Positions 2,074 to 56,400 of a stretch of 64,000 bases of DNA are shown piece after piece (positions within the stretch are counted from its first letter, which is position 1; each line of letters opens with the position of its first letter). Source of the stretch: Chitinophagales bacterium (lineage in GTDB: Bacteria; Bacteroidota; Bacteroidia; Chitinophagales; LD1). The notes under the pieces were generated by a model, which did not search any database, had not been told where the DNA came from, and saw nothing but the letters and a program-made list of their open reading frames with translations. The stretch covers positions 9,606 through 73,605 of the forward strand of contig JAXLUM010000003.1 of assembly GCA_046329515.1 (NCBI GenBank), in the 5' to 3' direction. Position numbers and translations under genes: made by a program.

Positions 2074-4298
2074 CGGAGCAGTGTAAAGTTGCCTGCCTGC
2101 TTTAATTGCTTTTGTGCACAATAGTTGAAGTATTCTACCTGGTAAATGTATACATCAGTAGGTTGCGGAGCGCTTTTGTAAATGCCGTTCCAACCTTGCG
2201 AAACATCAGTAGTTTCAAATAAGAGATTACCCCAGCGGTTGTAAACCTGCAGGTGATAACGTTGCGCGCCGCAGCGTGAAACGCCGCGATATACATCGTT
2301 CACTCCATCACTATTAGGACTAAATGCTGTGGGCATGTGCAATTGGCATTCATCAGGTAATATCTGCACTAAAATTTCATCGGAAGCGGTGCCACAAGGT
2401 GTAGATACGGTTGCTGAATACGTGCCTGTTTGTGAAACAGTATAAATGCTATCGGTGGAATTGTTCTGCCATTGATAAGTTGCATTTTTAACCGGAATGG
2501 AAAGCAGAACCCGGGCTGCGCCACAAATGGTAGTATCTGCACCGAAGTAGAAAGTAGGATCGCCGGTAAACACTTCTAATGAATCGGCAGCTTTACAAAT
2601 GGCCGTGTCCCAGCTTTGCACCCAGTAATTGCCAACCCGGTTAACTATTATTGATGAAGAAGTTTCGCCTGTGCTCCATAGGTAATTAATGGCACTAACT
2701 GAGGCGTTCAGTGTTAGTGAATCTCCTGTGCAAAGACTTAGATTAGGCCCAAGAACGGGTTGTGGACTGGGTAGCTGAAAAAGATTTATTGTATCGCGCG
2801 CAGTGCCGCATGTCAGATTTATCTGCGCCCAGTATAAGCCCGCGCCATTAACAGTTATTTGACTGCCGTTTGCACCCGTGCTCCATACGGTATTTGCATT
2901 ACCCGAAGATAAAGTGCGGCTAAAATTACCGCAGTAGGCAGTGTCTGCATCTAAAAAAGATTGATTAGGGCTAAAGACGGTTACAATAATTGAGTCTGCT
3001 TTAATACAGCCCGATGAGTTTACCTGAACCCAATAAAAACTCGGGTTAGCGGTTGAAAGTGTAGGGCCGGTGCTTCCATCACTCCATGTGTAAGAAGCGC
3101 AAGGTAAATTTGTATTAAGAGTAACTGTAGAGCCCGGACAAATTACGGTATCGGCACCGAGGTTTACCGTTAAAGAGTTGCAGTTTGAAGATACCACCTT
3201 ATCAGGCAAACCTGCGGCGCTAACCTTGCCGCCTAAATAAAAACCATCGTCTACAAAAGTACAGCCCGTTCCCGCAACGTTAGGGTTATTTATAACGGCA
3301 AGGTAGCTATCAGTGTAAACAGCAATGTATATTTTTCCATCGGGCGCTAACTGCATATACCCGGTTTTATAATTTGCATCGGGCCCGGTAATATTGCCTA
3401 TTAGCTGTGCGGATGCACTTATTGCTGCCTGTGTATAGTTAGAAAGGTCAAATTGGTAAAGGTAATCCTGCAGGTACCAACCCGTTAAATATAGTTTGCT
3501 TCCATCGGGTGAGAACTCCAGCCCCCAGGCGGCTGTATAATTAGGAATAAGTATGGCGTTGGAAAGAGTGCCGGTTGAATTGTCAAAATCAAATAATTCA
3601 AAATTTGAACTTCCGTAACAAGCTGTTGCTACGTGACGGCCATCTGTTGAAACATTTATTTGCCCTAAGGCATTATCTCCATTACCACCGCGCAACTGCC
3701 CAACATTGGAAACTACCGGAGTTGTTTGTAAGCCCTGGCAGGTTATAAGATAGGTATTAAAATTAGTAGAGCTCCATTCATGCGTTATCAACCAAACGTC
3801 CTTGCCATTAGCGTGCATTACAGGTATAACCTGCTCCGATGCGGGGTCTTTAAGCGCAATATTTTTTTGCCCGGAAACAATATCGCCCAGGCCTCCATCT
3901 AGACTCATATCTATTACTGAGTAGCGCAAACCATTGGGCCAGCCAAAGGCCGTCATAGTAACAAGGTAGTATATATTATAGCTACCCGGTTGGCGAATTG
4001 CCGTTGCCGCATGGCCTCCGGATAAATGACCGAATAGCCCGGAACCATTAGGCATTAGTTGATGGTTTCTGTTCCATACTTGTGTACCATCGCAATAAAA
4101 CAGGAGATTGCCGGCTGAATCAGCTACGGAGGCCGGATTGTCCAAAGCATTCATTGCACTATTGGTTACTACGGTCGGTGTACCACTTGTAAAGTCAATT
4201 CCCGCCTGGTTGCCGAAATACCATTTGCTGTATTCAAATTGAGCATTGAGATTGAAGACAACTATAATCCCAAAGAAGATTAGAGTGATGTTTTTCAT
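2070..4298 (-). CDS. Secreted beta-propeller/Ig-repeat protein with T9SS type-B (gliding motility-associated, CHU_C-like) C-terminal domain
   Basis: N-terminal signal peptide (MKNITLIFFGIIVVFNLNAQ). Repeated Cys-containing Ig-like modules. C-terminus reads PTAFSPNSDGVNDVY...GWNG...YIYQV, which is typical of type-B T9SS CTDs. Confidence 0.8.
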   Translation of the reverse strand: MKNITLIFFGIIVVFNLNAQFEYSKWYFGNQAGIDFTSGTPTVVTNSAMNALDNPASVADSAGNLLFYCDGTQVWNRNHQLMPNGSGLFGHLSGGHAATAIRQPGSYNIYYLVTMTAFGWPNGLRYSVIDMSLDGGLGDIVSGQKNIALKDPASEQVIPVMHANGKDVWLITHEWSSTNFNTYLITCQGLQTTPVVSNVGQLRGGNGDNALGQINVSTDGRHVATACYGSSNFELFDFDNSTGTLSNAILIPNYTAAWGLEFSPDGSKLYLTGWYLQDYLYQFDLSNYTQAAISASAQLIGNITGPDANYKTGYMQLAPDGKIYIAVYTDSYLAVINNPNVAGTGCTFVDDGFYLGGKVSAAGLPDKVVSSNCNSLTVNLGADTVICPGSTVTLNTNLPCASYTWSDGSTGPTLSTANPSFYWVQVNSSGCIKADSIIVTVFSPNQSFLDADTAYCGNFSRTLSSGNANTVWSTGANGSQITVNGAGLYWAQINLTCGTARDTINLFQLPSPQPVLGPNLSLCTGDSLTLNASVSAINYLWSTGETSSSIIVNRVGNYWVQSWDTAICKAADSLEVFTGDPTFYFGADTTICGAARVLLSIPVKNATYQWQNNSTDSIYTVSQTGTYSATVSTPCGTASDEILVQILPDECQLHMPTAFSPNSDGVNDVYRGVSRCGAQRYHLQVYNRWGNLLFETTDVSQGWNGIYKSAPQPTDVYIYQVEYFNYCAQKQLKQAGNFTLLR

Positions 4299-9599: not shown

Positions 9600-10655
9600 G
9601 TGCTAAAACCCAAAGTGCTTTTATTTTATAACTACCTGTCCTCTTTTGTAAAGAAGGATGTGGAGATTTTGAATGAAGCCTTTGCGGTACGCAGTCACGA
9701 TTTTTACACGAAGAAGAAAAGCGATACGCCTTTTCGGTTTCTCTCCCAATTCTTTTTTCTGCTGGGTAATATATGGACCGCTAAACTGGTAGTGGTTGAG
9801 TTTGCCGGTTACCACAGTTTGTTGCCCGTGCTGTTTGCAAAGTTGCTGGGCAAAAAGAGTTTGATTATTTCGGGCGGAACGGATGCGCATTACTTTCCGG
9901 GTATTGGTTATGGTAACTGGCAAAAGAAATATCTGCGAACCTTTACGCGCTTAAGTTTTAGTTGGTGCAGCCATATTGCACCCAAGCACAAAACCTTAAT
10001 GCAAAGTTTATATGAGTATGATAAAAGCGAACCTAAAGAACAGGGTATTTACGCGCGCATACCCGGTTTAAAAACGCCTTATACCGAAATACCGAATGGC
10101 TACGATGCGGTAAAGTGGAAATGCACTAAGGCCAAAAAGAAAAACACTTTTATAACCGTAAGCGGTGCCTGGGAATATCCCTTTCAGCAGCAGTTAAAGG
10201 GAATTGATTTGATACTGCAGGTAGCGCCTTCTTTTCCTGATTGTGAGTTTATAATACTTGGTGTGGATGATGTTAGCCGCATAGTAACCGACACGCCCAA
10301 CGTAAAAGTGCTGCCTGCCGTAGCTAACGAAAAACTGGTTGACATTTTCAGCGAATGTGAGTTTTATATGCAGCTAAGTATGGCAGAGGGTTTTCCTAAC
10401 TCTATTTGCGAGGCCATGTTGTGCGAATGTGTGCCTATTGGCTCGGCGGTATTTTCTATACCCGAAATAATAAACGGCAGCGGCTTTGTGTTGCATAAAC
10501 GCGATGCACTGGCGCTGAAAGATGTTATCACCTCTGCCTTAGCCAGCGATAGAGCCGCCTTAGGCAAACAGGCCCGCCAGCGCATTGCCACTAACTACAC
10601 GCACCAAATGCGGAAGGAGAAGTTGTTGGGGGTGTGTGAGGGGTTGGTAGGATAA
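9600..10655 (+). CDS. Glycosyltransferase family 4 (GT-B, GT1 superfamily)
   Basis: C-terminal EGFPNSICEAMLCECVPIGS matches the E(x7)E-type GT4 motif. GTG start. Confidence 0.75.
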   Translation: MLKPKVLLFYNYLSSFVKKDVEILNEAFAVRSHDFYTKKKSDTPFRFLSQFFFLLGNIWTAKLVVVEFAGYHSLLPVLFAKLLGKKSLIISGGTDAHYFPGIGYGNWQKKYLRTFTRLSFSWCSHIAPKHKTLMQSLYEYDKSEPKEQGIYARIPGLKTPYTEIPNGYDAVKWKCTKAKKKNTFITVSGAWEYPFQQQLKGIDLILQVAPSFPDCEFIILGVDDVSRIVTDTPNVKVLPAVANEKLVDIFSECEFYMQLSMAEGFPNSICEAMLCECVPIGSAVFSIPEIINGSGFVLHKRDALALKDVITSALASDRAALGKQARQRIATNYTHQMRKEKLLGVCEGLVG

Positions 10656-38199: not shown

Positions 38200-38231
38200 A
38201 AAGCCGCCCCCTTTTTAGGGGCGGCTTTTTT
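38200..38231. terminator. Bidirectional rho-independent terminator
   Basis: aAAGCCGCCCCctttttaGGGGCGGCTTttttt lies between two convergent stops (38153 and 38235). Confidence 0.85.
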
Positions 38232-38234
38232 CAG

Positions 38235-38360
38235 TTAGCACTTGCAGTCTGCACAGTTGCAGGGTGAACACTGGCAACCGGTGGTTTTGCAGTTACAGTT
38301 TTCGCATTTACAGTTGTTGCAAGAGCAGTTCTGCTGCTTCAGTTTCAATGTTGTTTCCAT
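38235..38360 (-). CDS. 41-aa cysteine-rich, metallothionein-like peptide (not in ORF track)
   Basis: Own translation: METTLKLKQQNCSCNNCKCENCNCKTTGCQCSPCNCADCKC*. It has 12 Cys in two copies of CxCxxCxCxxCxC. ATG start with an A-rich leader, a -7 box about 30 nt upstream, and a terminator 3 nt after the stop. Confidence 0.7.
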   Translation of the reverse strand: METTLKLKQQNCSCNNCKCENCNCKTTGCQCSPCNCADCKC

Positions 38361-38389
38361 CTTTTTAATTGTTTAGTTAATTAATGATG

Positions 38390-38397
38390 CAAACATA
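38390..38397 (-). promoter_or_regulatory. Bacteroidota -7 promoter box (TAtgTTTG on the minus strand) for the Cys-rich peptide gene
   Basis: Minus strand reads ..cccctATGTTTGcatcattaattaactaaacaattaaaaagATG. Confidence 0.5.
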
Positions 38398-38426
38398 GGG
38401 GCAGTAGGCCGCCTGCGGTTTATACT

Positions 38427-38456
38427 ACTTTGGGTGCGTGTTATAAAACTTTGGGT
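38427..38456 (-). promoter_or_regulatory. Two direct repeats ACTTTGGGT spaced 21 bp apart (candidate AraC-type operator)
   Basis: actttgggt occurs at 38427-38435 and 38448-38456, upstream of the -7 box and abutting the stop of the AraC gene. Confidence 0.35.
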
Positions 38457-39032
38457 TTAAATTTTATCCAACGCCTTACGCTTGGCGGCTCCAACTTCTT
38501 TATAATGCGAAGGCGTAAGCCCTGTTATTTTTTTAAACTGGCTCGATAAGTGGGCCACGCTGCTGTAGTTCAGCTCTACGGCAATTTCTGATAAGGTTAG
38601 CTGACGGTAAACAATAAGTTCTTTCGCCTTCTCAATACGCTGCTCAATAAAATACTGCTCAATAGTTCGGCCTTCAATGGCGGAAAACATACTGCTTAAG
38701 TGGGTGTATTCGTAGTTAAGCTGCTCAGCCAAATATTTGGAAAGGATTATTTTTTTATCGCTGCTATCTTCTTCGTTGCGCGCTTTTTTAATAATCAACT
38801 GCTTTGTTTTTTCTATCAGCGCACTGGTGTGGCTGTCAATTAATTCAAAGCCTACTTTTTCCAGTTCTTCTGCCAGCTTGTGTTTTTGCGTATCGCTTAT
38901 TTTTTCGGGCAGGTGTATTTCACCAAAAATAACTTCGTTAAACGGTATAGCTGCCTTATTTAAAATGGTTTCTACCGACATTATGCAACGCCTGCATACC
39001 ATATTCTTAACCAGTAAAACTGAAGCCGCCAT
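38457..39032 (-). CDS. AraC-family transcriptional regulator with N-terminal HMA-like (MxCxxC) metal-binding domain
   Basis: N-terminus LLVKNMVCRRCIMSVETIL (MxCxxC in a ferredoxin-like segment). C-terminal AraC HTH (LTLSEIAVELNYSSVAHLSSQFKKITGLTPSHY). The ATG at 39032 is preferred because the TTG at 39062 overlaps a -7 box. Confidence 0.8.
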   Translation of the reverse strand: MAASVLLVKNMVCRRCIMSVETILNKAAIPFNEVIFGEIHLPEKISDTQKHKLAEELEKVGFELIDSHTSALIEKTKQLIIKKARNEEDSSDKKIILSKYLAEQLNYEYTHLSSMFSAIEGRTIEQYFIEQRIEKAKELIVYRQLTLSEIAVELNYSSVAHLSSQFKKITGLTPSHYKEVGAAKRKALDKI

Positions 39033-39059
39033 GATGTATTGATGTAAGTGAGTCCGCGC

Positions 39060-39067
39060 CAAAATTA
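39060..39067 (-). promoter_or_regulatory. Bacteroidota -7 box (TAatTTTG on the minus strand) for the AraC regulator
   Basis: Minus strand reads gcgcaTAATTTTGgcgcgg, about 28 nt upstream of the ATG at 39032. Confidence 0.4.
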
Positions 39068-39106: not shown

Positions 39107-39133
39107 AAAAAAGGCCGTGCTTGCGCACGGCCT
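39107..39133 (-). terminator. Rho-independent terminator after the DUF4397 gene
   Basis: Minus strand reads AGGCCGTGCgcaaGCACGGCCTtttttt. Confidence 0.8.
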
Positions 39134-39157
39134 CCATTAAACCCAAGAGAGAATCAA

Positions 39158-53443: not shown

Positions 53444-56400
53444 GTGATTTACCTCTTTTTTGATAGCGATGTTTGGTTAAACTCTCTCAAAGAAAGCGGG
53501 GAGGAAGATAACTATATTGATTCATTGGAGTACTGGATTGAAAATGGGCATGTCAAAATACTACTTCCTGAAAACGTAATTGACGAATGGAAAAGAAACC
53601 GAGACAAGAAAAAGGAAACGTTTCTAGAAGATTGGAAATCCTTTTTCAACAGAGCCAAAAAGGTTTTCTCAGGGGATGTGGTAAACAATTTAATGACCCC
53701 TGAGAATCTGAATGAGAGAGTTGAGAAACAGCTCAAAAGAGTTGAAGCAATTTTTGAAAACTACGCTATAAAAATTCCAATCACCAACGATTATAAATTA
53801 AAGGCAATAGAATTAGCTGAACGGAAGAAGGCGCCTTTTGGACAAAAGAACAGCATTGGAGATGCTTATATTTTTGTAAGCATAATCGACTATATTTCAT
53901 CTAACAATCTTTCCGATTGTGTTTTTGTAACCAATAACCACACAGATTTCAGCCACAAAGGTGATTACAGTAAAATTCACCCTGATTTAGAGCCTGAATT
54001 CACTAAACTGCAAATCAGTTATTACATTAATCTCAGAAGATTTTTTCGTGAGTACTCATCTCGTCTTCCAGATGTCTCAGAATACAGAAAGCTCAAAGCT
54101 CGCAAAGAAGAAGATAAAAAACTTGCTAGTGCGGTTTTGGACCCTCAAACACTTGAGAACCTAACAGGACTAAGAGATTCTTACATTGAAAACATTAATC
54201 ACTTAGACCTAATTTTCAAAACCGTCAGTCCAACAAAGGAGCAAGTTCTCTTTGCGCTCGGGTTAGTTGATTCTGATGAAAGTTACAAGCAATACTTTTT
54301 TAAAAAAATTGAAAGTAGTGTTTGGTTTAAAATACTTAAAAGTAGCGGAGAGTTTAATCCCTCAAAGAATCCTGCCCCGATTCAGTTAAATGATGGGATT
54401 CAAGTTCCCCTGTGGGATCCGCTTGTTTACCTTGAAAAGCTTTCATTGCAAATCAAGAATGGACAGTCTCTTGAACTCATTGATGAAATAGTTGCAATCA
54501 TCAATGAAACTTCTCAAAAACCAGTTGACAATTACAAAACCTGGTATTTGTTTATCAAAATATTGGCTAATCTCCCGAAAGAAAAAATTCCAATAGAGAC
54601 ATTGAAATTCATTCCTACATGGTTTAGTGGAAGTTTTGATACAATGATGCAGAGTTCAGAGATATGCGATAATCTACTTCCAAAGTTTCTCTCTGAAAGT
54701 CCAACAACGGATGACATTCAAAAGGCAGAAGTGATTTTAAAATATCTTTTCAGTATTGAGAAAGTTGAAGTTACTGGACAGGGCAGATTAGTGACTGATG
54801 CAGAGAGCTATCACTCGAAAGTTTACATGTATTATTTAACAGATGCTTTAATTGATAAGAAGCTAACGAAAAAAATTGTTGCTTATTGTTCAGATAATAT
54901 CATTATTGAATTAGCAGAAAAAATTAAGACGCTGGGATTTGATTTTCCTGGAGGAATTAACTTTTCACTCAAAATAATAGACAAGAGCTACAGTTGTAAG
55001 GCTGAAATTGTAAATGAGGATTTGATTGTTAAGATTTTAGTGGAAGATGGAAAAATCATTGGAGAAGGAATAATAGAAAAATTTGAAAACCTTACCGACG
55101 AGCAAGTGAAAGCTTACTTAATTGCGCTTCTGGAAAAGTTAGAAGTTGTATATGAAGAGAACGAAGAAAACGAGTGGGAAATACAAATACTTACAAATGC
55201 TTTAGCAAATGGCAATTACCACTTTTCTGACGACGCAATAAGTGAATTAAATTACCGCTCCCATCACGGAGATAAAGTTATTGAAGTGTTTTCTTTAATC
55301 TTTAGGAATCTTCTAAATGATAAAGTACAACAGAATAAGGAAGAGGGGCTTTTGCTTTTAAAAGTTTTTGCCTTTAAGAATAAATACAGGTCGACATTTT
55401 TCCGTAGGGTTATTCTGTTTGTAATTAGAGAGAATTGGGAGGCATGTAGGGGTTTGTTTTGGGAAATTGTTAAAGAGAATGACTCCTTGTCGCTTTTTTC
55501 TGATTATAATTTTTATAAAGACCTGTACGAAATCCTCAATAAGAACCAAATGTTATTGCGCCAAGAAGAAATCTCGACACTTCAAAAGATAATCGATTTA
55601 GGCCCTCGGGATAAAGAAGTTGGAGACCCAAAGTATAAGGACTATTGGCAGTTGCGTTGGTATTCTGCTTTGAGAAATATTGCTCCGTTCAGAAAAAGTT
55701 ATGAAAAGCTTTCACAATCAGAAAACCTGACCAACGAACACTATGAAAATTTGGGTGTGATAAGAACCAGAGTTGGTTCGGTTTCTCCTTTTAGTGTAGA
55801 AGAAATACTTCAAAAAGGTAATCAGGATATTGTCGAATTCATTCATGCGTTCAAACCAAAAGATCGTTGGGAAGAACCAACTATTGACGGACTATCAAGT
55901 TCATTAAGTGCAGCGATCCAAAAGGAACCGCAAAAATTTTCTGATGAAATTGAACTTTACAAGGATGTACCCTACATCTATGCTTACCATATTTCCAATG
56001 GTTTTAGGGAGGCATGGAAAAATAAAAGGTCATTCAATTGGGAAAAGGTTTTGAATTTCTACAAAGAGTATATCTCAAACGAAAAATTTACATCAGATGA
56101 GCTTCGTTTAGAAAATGATGGTTGGGGGGCAACATCAGATTGGGTTTTAGGTTCAGTTGCTAACCTTTTAACTGAAGGGTTGCAATCAGACAATAATGGA
56201 TTTGATTTATCGCTTCTGCCTATTGCAAAATATATTCTTAAAATTATTGTTCCACGGTTAAGGCCAGTGGAAGACTTTAAGCAAACGAATATGGACTATC
56301 CGACCTATTCGCTGAATTCAACAGCCGGTAAAACGCTTAGAGCTTTACTTGATTATTCACTCAGGAGAGCAAGAAACTTAAAAGCAGAAGATAGTTTACC

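Follow-up and report, generated by a model that had tools for sequence, protein, structure and literature searches.

A 64,000-nucleotide stretch of DNA from a Chitinophagales bacterium (contig JAXLUM010000003.1 of assembly GCA_046329515.1), referred to here as the window, carries on its minus strand a regulator gene followed by the gene for a very small Cys-rich peptide. The regulator combines a heavy-metal-associated (HMA) domain with an AraC-type DNA-binding domain, and the spacer between both genes contains a tandem operator that is conserved in relatives. We consider it fairly probable, with reservations that are set out below, that the regulator is a Cu(I)-sensing activator which switches on a new metallothionein-like peptide, and that the two genes form a metal-buffering unit. 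On the minus strand the regulator gene is followed by a 96-bp spacer, the peptide open reading frame (ORF) and a terminator; the coordinates of all elements are collected in Table 1.

A divergent HMA domain fused to an AraC domain

The initial annotation of this locus, which was made from the sequence without database searches, had recognised an N-terminal HMA domain with an MxCxxC motif fused to an AraC helix-turn-helix (HTH) in the regulator, which contains LLVKNMVCRRCIM near its N-terminus. The AraC part was confirmed by Pfam matches to PF12833 (HTH_18; 66.1 bits, cut-off 33.6) and PF00165 (HTH_AraC; 42.7 bits, cut-off 26.6), and these domains were the only Pfam matches in the protein. Since the Pfam HMA model misses the N-terminus, the assignment of this part needed evidence from sequence profiles and structure. 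A profile of the N-terminal 65 residues of the family, searched against Protein Data Bank (PDB) sequences, reached the HMA domains of ATP7B (E 3.2e-11 summed; 2ew9 3.9e-5) and CopZ (2qif, E 6e-3; the PDB title of this entry describes CopZ with a tetranuclear Cu(I) cluster), and placed the Cys pair of the regulator in register with the MxCxxC of ATP7B and CopZ. An AlphaFold 2 (AF2) model of the regulator had a mean predicted local distance difference test score (pLDDT) of 86, with 80-94 in its blocks, and a predicted template modelling score of 0.74. Its secondary structure comprises strands and helices in the order E4-9, H14-26, E33-35, E38-41 and H47-59 with a short strand at 63-64 in the DSSP string; the CxxC lies at the start of helix 1, and a linker helix leads to the AraC domain. 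In Foldseek searches the N-terminal part retrieved CopZ (6ff2 and 2qif, target TM 0.68-0.70) and the C-terminal part retrieved the DNA-binding domains of AraT (6swi), YesN (3lsg), AraC (2k9s), MarA (1bl0), SoxS and Rob. Together, profile and model indicate that the N-terminus is, as the initial annotation had it, a genuine though divergent HMA domain to which an AraC domain is fused.

The putative metal-binding loop is strongly conserved. In an alignment of 36 sequences with 39-81% identity, N10, M11, V12, C13, R15, C16, G37 and G61 were invariant, and NMVCxRC was the invariant loop motif of these sequences from across the phylum. A CxxC pair can also serve as a thiol-disulfide redox switch and Cys-rich peptides can scavenge oxidants, so the locus could be read as a redox circuit with the peptide as a scavenger of oxidants or electrophiles. 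We regard this as very improbable, as the fold and the loop match metal-binding HMA domains and not thioredoxin-like folds, and the genes next to members of the family encode metal transporters, chaperones and a copper oxidase.

A predicted tandem operator at the position of the -33 element

The spacer between the two genes had been noted for a 9-mer, ACTTTGGGT, which occurs twice at a distance of 21 bp, and this was proposed to be the operator of an AraC-type dimer. The 9-mer is indeed found on the plus strand at 38427-38435 and 38448-38456, with a start-to-start spacing of 21 bp, and the second copy abuts the regulator stop codon (TTA, 38457-38459 on the plus strand). Its count in itself is only weakly above chance: four copies occur in the 64-kb window versus approximately one expected, and four were reached in 2 of 100 shuffles. 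The direct repeat is real and conserved, with a unit of 15-21 nt and not 9 nt. A 21-bp tandem unit, ACCCAAAGTnnTATAA, is present in two copies and has the 9-mer as its core; repeat finding located the full 21-nt unit in tandem at 38414-38434 and 38435-38455 with 17/21 identity. An extended unit, CCCAAAGTnnTATAA, has three exact copies in the 4.38-Mb genome, two of them at the operator. The other two copies of the 9-mer in the window (9608-9616 and 55626-55634, minus strand) have no TATAA half and no partner at 21 bp, and are taken as chance occurrences.

On the coding strand the spacer reads TAA-ACCCAAAGTTTTATAAC-acgc-ACCCAAAGTAGTATAAA-(22 nt)-TATGTTTG-(29 nt)-ATG, in which ACCCAAAGTTTTATAAC and ACCCAAAGTAGTATAAA are the predicted distal and proximal operator boxes. 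The element TATGTTTG fits TAnnTTTG, which we take to be the Bacteroidota -7 consensus from promoters of Bacteroides and Flavobacterium. No TTTG-type -33 element was found in the 22-nt spacer (38398-38419, minus strand), and the proximal box occupies the position of this element, 22 nt upstream of -7. The repeats thus lie upstream of the -7 box, as had been stated, but at the place of the -33 element and not directly against the -7 box. Two 17-nt boxes phased by 21 bp, the proximal one adjoining the -33 region, correspond to the site layout of AraC-type proteins, and the geometry suggested for the repeat in the initial annotation holds in this respect. The combination of a missing -33 element with a box at its position is, as we read it, the layout of activator-dependent promoters; AraC at I1-I2 and class II activators of the XylS/RhaS type use the same arrangement.

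This geometry is shared across the family. When promoters were anchored on a TrTAA pentamer located exactly 26 nt 5' of TTTG, with no other columns used, 39 of 67 family loci could be aligned without gaps and had the same rigid arrangement of two boxes and a -7 element. After removal of near-duplicates from these loci, 33 sequences were left. Outside the anchor columns, the proximal box has the consensus y-C-C-A-a-A-A-T-n-n-T-G-T-A-A, with the two C in 27/33 and 25/33 and the T in 30/33 sequences, while A-A-A-T-n-n-T-A-T-A-A is the consensus of the distal box, which lies exactly 21 bp further upstream and has columns conserved in 25-32 of the 33 sequences. Of the 33 promoters, 32 have the A of the -7 TA, and the TA and TTTG positions are conserved at a fixed distance in the alignment. 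Conservation of the repeat in orthologous spacers, which had been named as a check, was therefore found, and it extends to the wider family.

The regulator's stop codon and the distal box overlap in many relatives, with a conserved ..TGTAAAtnTTACAA.. even though the last amino acids vary (e.g. L049, L050, L059-L061, L016 and L029). This would be an overlap of coding and regulatory sequence, and owing to it the first half of the distal box is less conserved in relatives. In the window, unlike in these relatives, the distal box begins directly after the TAA.

The 22-nt spacer between proximal box and -7 element is G+C-rich and can form a short hairpin, GGCGGCCTACTGCC, which was flagged by the terminator scan. 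Relatives have likewise G+C-rich and hairpin-capable spacers at this position (CCCCTCGGGGG, CCCCCGTGGGGG and CCCCGGGGG in loci L002, L003 and L004). Such a hairpin might reduce the transcription that continues from the regulator gene into the peptide gene, or it might influence how the promoter melts.

A single predicted target genome-wide

Next, the genome was searched for further operators. A first box search with loose mismatches gave 154 scattered matches, which was uninformative, and it was replaced by scans for paired boxes and with a weight matrix. A two-box matrix built from 31 loci, with this window left out, assigned 34.4 bits to the site in the window, which is the highest score among the 8.76 million positions of the 4.38-Mb genome and lies within the range of the training sites; the runner-up reached 19.6 bits. 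A looser search for one box with a -7 element at the right distance retrieved only the peptide promoter (19.4 bits), with the next three candidates at 10.6 bits or less. The next-best paired sites (C1:462458 and C4:422280) were rejected, as they have six mismatches each and no -7 element at the right distance. With no second site of this kind in the genome, the regulator, itself encoded in one copy, is predicted to act on the peptide gene alone.

The genome encodes two HMA-bearing P1B-type ATPases (C3:139937-142100, plus strand, and C1:1453000-1455393, minus strand), both outside the window. No operator was found upstream of either ATPase gene or of the gene for a small HMA protein, for which the best two-box scores were at most 5.2 bits. 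The initial description of regulator, operator and peptide as a self-contained module without a linked efflux pump agrees with these results.

A 12-Cys peptide without detectable homologues among metallothioneins

The product of the downstream gene contains 29% Cys and no F, W, Y or H. Its ORF has its own -7 box and terminator, and Cys-rich ORFs are present at the same position in 11 other loci. Relatives of the peptide (nine compared) diverge quickly, at 32-56% identity, and all six invariant alignment columns are Cys. In size, Cys content, CxC motifs and lack of aromatic residues the peptide resembles metallothioneins. The best Pfam match, Metallothio_Euk, stayed below the threshold (E 0.57, 10.6 bits versus a cut-off of 22), NCBIfam gave no match, and the relatives had no match in Pfam. 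A word-based search of a 5.8-billion-protein collection returned no candidates for the peptide. By these searches of Pfam, NCBIfam and proteins, no homology to the described metallothionein families (eukaryotic, SmtA/BmtA and MymT) was detected. Hence, the peptide appears to be a metallothionein by composition that belongs to no described family by homology. A profile of nine peptides run against the bacterium's own genome did not recover even the query gene, and being insensitive for such a low-complexity peptide it is uninformative about further copies.

A role of the peptide as a precursor of a ribosomally synthesised and post-translationally modified peptide or as a secreted peptide was considered and rejected: the peptide lacks a signal peptide, its vicinity encodes no modification enzyme, and the neighbouring genes are unrelated.

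A well-supported clade links the regulator to CxC-rich peptides

The regulator family is widespread. In the 5.8-billion-protein collection, 7,942 of 8,000 scored candidates were significant matches, and most of the best matches are exactly 191 residues long. Members occur in 78 of 151 genomes of the order sample, with up to four copies, and in 155 of 301 genomes and 92 of 144 genera of the phylum sample. We compared the first downstream gene at 67 loci, of which 38 came from a collection of genome contigs and 29 from the order sample. All ten regulators with at least 59% identity, this one included, are followed by a Cys-rich ORF of 40-58 residues, and in a maximum-likelihood tree these ten form one clade (support 100/99, stem 0.61) with no other sequence inside. 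Two more clade members that were not part of the tree, from a Ferruginibacter metagenome-assembled genome (MAG; GCA_040006615.1) and a JGI metagenome (3300066133), have an uncalled stretch of approximately 350 bp 3' of the regulator, and each stretch carries operator and -7 box together with a CxC-rich ORF, which is 37 or 52 residues long. The peptide gene was called by neither the NCBI nor the JGI pipeline at these two annotated loci. In total, 12 of 12 regulators of the clade that were checked precede a CxC-rich ORF of 37-58 residues. The comparison of gene neighbourhoods that had been suggested for the homologues thus revealed a constant trio of regulator, operator and peptide in one clade.

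These results bear on the explanation that chance produced the repeat and the small ORF and that the regulator acts elsewhere. The 9-mer count and the absence of the peptide from protein databases would fit it, but sequence and spacing of the boxes and their distance to -7 are kept across the phylum, the genome has this site only once, and the ORF, which comes with a terminator and a -7 box of its own, recurs in all 12 clade members checked and keeps Cys columns invariant. We consider this explanation close to refuted.

In other clades the downstream genes point to copper. Some encode HMA-bearing P1B ATPases, and the link of HMA-AraC regulators to P-type ATPases that is stated in the initial annotation is true for these clades. 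The full-length ATPases that were checked carry MxxSS, with CPC in 5/6, and the one tested matched TIGR01511 (copper-translocating ATPase) with 604 bits (cut-off 397). Other first downstream genes encode an HMA protein with a hydrophobic N-terminus, an ArsP-HMA permease and, in Flavobacterium tructae, a multicopper oxidase. The commonest target in Sphingobacteriia and Chitinophagales is a protein of approximately 240 residues with an N-terminal HMA domain and a MauE-like membrane domain (PF07291; loci L008, L013, L016, L038, L055, L057, L058, L061-L064, L066, L068 and L074). It has no match in NCBIfam, and we know of no established function for it. A paralogous regulator (L069) is followed at approximately 106 nt by a gene for a 105-residue protein with 16 Cys and DUF326 repeats, which are known as the Csp-type four-helix copper storage fold. 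Upstream of this DUF326 gene there are two palindromic boxes similar to TGTAAAnnTTACAA, with a different spacing. A minority of the 67 loci, e.g. those of Chlorobiota or one with a TonB receptor, have no evident metal gene downstream. The Chlorobiota MAGs (L018, L019 and L022) show that the family extends beyond Bacteroidota; the gene downstream of the regulator encodes a membrane protein of the DUF6544/DUF6920 type there, and anchoring identified no operator.

Metal identity and direction of control

In the mechanism that we propose, the CxxC in the HMA domain would enable the regulator to sense a thiophilic metal, which is most likely Cu(I) in the cytoplasm. Two metallated molecules would then occupy the two direct repeats, with one AraC domain on each 17-bp box. 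The proximal box would substitute for the missing -33 element, and the bound regulator would recruit RNA polymerase to the -7 element. This activation would turn on the monocistronic peptide gene, and the peptide may sequester the metal in the manner of a metallothionein. CopZ, Atx1 and similar HMA proteins are known to form pairs that share a Cu(I). As the regulator has no other dimerisation domain, a pairing of two HMA domains, bridged by Cu(I) as in these dimers, is proposed as a plausible switch.

Copper is favoured because the neighbours in the wider family are copper-type and because the genome contains no CsoR (no match to PF02583), no CueR above the cut-off (29.7 bits versus 147) and no multicopper oxidase. 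We infer both the identity of the metal and its binding by the peptide. Several observations weigh against the proposed mechanism. PF00403, the Pfam HMA model, did not match the regulator at E<=1, and a whole-genome search with this model also did not retrieve it. CxC-rich peptides are not restricted to Cu(I) and can bind Zn or Cd as well. The peptide-linked clade stands on the long branch noted above. Furthermore, residue 14, the first x of CxxC, is R, Q, H, T or N in this clade (CRRC, CQRC, CHRC, CTRC and CNRC), compared to CRRC in all 26 sequences of other clades; it is a possible determinant of specificity or affinity, and the metal could differ from that of the CopA-linked clades. Also, the operator does not control the genome's copper ATPases, as far as the scans predict, which would be odd if the regulator were the cell's main copper sensor. 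Lastly, we infer activation rather than repression from the position of the boxes alone.

Some of these observations would be accounted for if the same architecture responded to another metal in the peptide-linked clade, namely Zn(II), Cd(II), Hg(II) or Ag(I), with the peptide as a metallothionein of the Zn/Cd type. CxC motifs are typical of such metallothioneins too, and the branch length, the variation at residue 14 and the lack of co-regulation of the ATPases would all be compatible with it. On the other hand, all informative neighbours in the wider family are copper-type (CopA/TIGR01511, multicopper oxidase and a Csp-like protein), no gene of the ZntA or CzcD type was seen beside any family member among the loci compared, and the NMVCxRC loop lacks the Asp of the GMDCxxC loop of ZntA-type proteins. 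Another metal is unlikely in our view, and Cu(I) remains the preferred effector.

Regarding the direction of control, the regulator might alternatively be a repressor or roadblock that is released by the metal, in which case the apo-protein on the boxes would block the promoter or the read-through from its own gene. Repression is the mode of CsoR, RicR and CopY, and of most known copper sensors apart from CueR (PMC3944814). The boxes are located between the regulator gene and the peptide promoter, and a bound protein could stop read-through. This placement is upstream of -7, however, and covers neither the -7 element nor the start site; moreover, a promoter without a -33 element should be weak unaided. 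AraC/XylS proteins on tandem direct repeats that abut -35 are typically activators. The position of the boxes upstream of -7, the proximal one in place of -33, and their phasing by two helical turns thus argue for activation, and we judge repression to be rather unlikely.

Comparison with known systems

A unit of metal sensor and metallothionein, as predicted here, is of a known kind; the architecture of the regulator and the peptide family were not found described. A description of an HMA-AraC copper or metal regulator or of a Bacteroidota metallothionein was absent from the searchable full-text literature, a scope outside which subscription-only papers fall. A survey from 2023 reports for Bacteroidota representatives only two-component and extracytoplasmic function (ECF) homologues of known copper systems and never mentions AraC (PMC10141476). 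The regulator belongs to none of the CueR/MerR, CsoR/RicR or CopY families, given its AraC-only Pfam matches and its HMA N-terminus.

The RicR system of Mycobacterium tuberculosis, in which a CsoR-family repressor is released by Cu(I) from genes including those for the copper metallothionein MymT and a multicopper oxidase (PMC3944814), resembles the locus in that a dedicated cytoplasmic one-component sensor, here with predicted copper sensing, is placed over the gene of a small Cys-rich peptide. In both cases the wider family of the sensor controls a multicopper oxidase and other copper genes. RicR, however, is an all-helical protein on a palindromic site, from which Cu(I) releases it, whereas the regulator described here combines HMA and AraC domains, would bind tandem direct repeats and is probably an activator; MymT and the peptide have no detectable homology. 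In SmtB-SmtA of Synechococcus, a bacterial sensor gene likewise adjoins a metallothionein gene in a two-gene unit, but the genes are divergent and the sensor is a Zn-specific repressor of the ArsR type. SmtA has a zinc-finger-like fold with His ligands, while the peptide has no His and does not match the SmtA family.

Among eukaryotes, the fungal Ace1(Cup2)/Amt1-CUP1 systems and the Cu(I)-thioneins of the Neurospora/Agaricus type are similar in that a copper-activated factor controls a very small CxC-rich thionein with alike CxC spacing. Their sensor is a copper-fist protein with a Cu4S6 cluster, unrelated to HMA or AraC, and no homology of the peptides was found. The DNA-binding domain and the two direct half-sites of approximately 17 bp, phased by 21 bp with the proximal one abutting the -35 equivalent, are shared with AraC at araI1-I2 and with the class II activators XylS, RhaS and MelR. 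In contrast to AraC, the sensor part here is a 65-residue HMA domain instead of a cupin/jelly-roll sugar domain, the proposed effector is a metal ion, and the promoter is of the Bacteroidota -33/-7 type. With CopZ/Atx1 and the N-terminal HMA domains of CopA/ATP7B the regulator shares the fold and the position of the CxxC loop; these proteins traffic metal and do not bind DNA, and their loop is GMTCxxC compared to NMVCRRC here, which falls below the Pfam HMA threshold.

Implications

Bacteroidota dominate gut, soil and freshwater communities, and to our knowledge their cytoplasmic copper sensing is not settled. It may be speculated, with about even chances of being right, that cytoplasmic Cu(I) is sensed in this phylum mainly by HMA-AraC proteins, a new metalloregulator family in which Cu(I)-bridged pairing loads two AraC domains on a tandem operator and activates transcription; that the CxC-rich peptides of 37-58 residues are a new family of copper metallothioneins missed by gene callers; and that the system is pared down here to a single-target circuit which only buffers the metal, without export. 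If this is true, a family present in about half of the sampled genomes would fill the copper-sensor gap of the Bacteroidota, a new architecture would be added to the short list of metalloregulator families, and the linked peptides would form a new family of bacterial metallothioneins, of which few are known. The peptide ORFs also illustrate how small genes with a function can escape annotation pipelines. The family's operator is rigid and easy to recognise, and its matrix should allow regulons to be predicted from the sequence of any Bacteroidota genome. The window would hold the circuit at its most reduced, with a single sensor, operator and target, and would offer the simplest system for testing the mechanism; in Bacteroidota, the two-gene unit could also be used as a compact part for metal biosensors.

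Locus features and neighbouring genes

A TTG at 39062 was considered as the start of the regulator and rejected, as the alignment of 35 homologues begins at the ATG listed in Table 1, which is the likely start. Upstream of the candidate -7 element of the regulator gene, no operator-like box was found.

Table 1 Elements of the HMA-AraC regulator and peptide locus and related ORFs. Positions refer to the window unless a locus is given.
Feature	Position	Strand	Remarks
HMA-AraC regulator gene	38457..39032	-	191 aa; ATG 39032, stop TAA 38459-38457; from ORF list and homologue alignment
N-terminal HMA domain, ferredoxin-like beta-alpha-beta-beta-alpha-beta	38841..39023	-	residues 4-64; model, profile and Foldseek
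C13-R-R-C16 codons, putative metal-binding CxxC	38985..38996	-	homologue alignment
AraC/XylS double helix-turn-helix DNA-binding domain	38499..38732	-	residues 101-178; Pfam and Foldseek
Candidate -7 element of the regulator gene, TAATTTTG	39060..39067	-	27 nt 5' of ATG; tentatively read from sequence
Distal operator box, ACCCAAAGTTTTATAAC	38440..38456	-	predicted site; directly after regulator stop codon
Proximal operator box, ACCCAAAGTAGTATAAA	38419..38435	-	predicted site; 21 bp downstream of distal box, ends 22 nt before -7
-7 element of the peptide gene, TATGTTTG	38390..38397	-	TAnnTTTG type; read from sequence
41-aa peptide gene, METTLKLKQQNCSCNNCKCENCNCKTTGCQCSPCNCADCKC	38235..38360	-	12 Cys as six CxC pairs; from ORF list, unannotated
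Intrinsic terminator, bidirectional	38200..38228	both	12-pair stem, 8 G-C pairs, T-rich tail on each strand
Terminator of the gene upstream of the regulator	39110-39135		terminator scan
Unannotated peptide ORF (GCA_040006615.1)	L075:3174-3287		
Unannotated peptide ORF (JGI 3300066133)	L076:~3187-3357		

The bidirectional terminator closes both the peptide gene and a convergent DUF1801 gene. This gene and that for a cargo protein of the type IX secretion system (T9SS) are the neighbours of the module, and they are unrelated to it.

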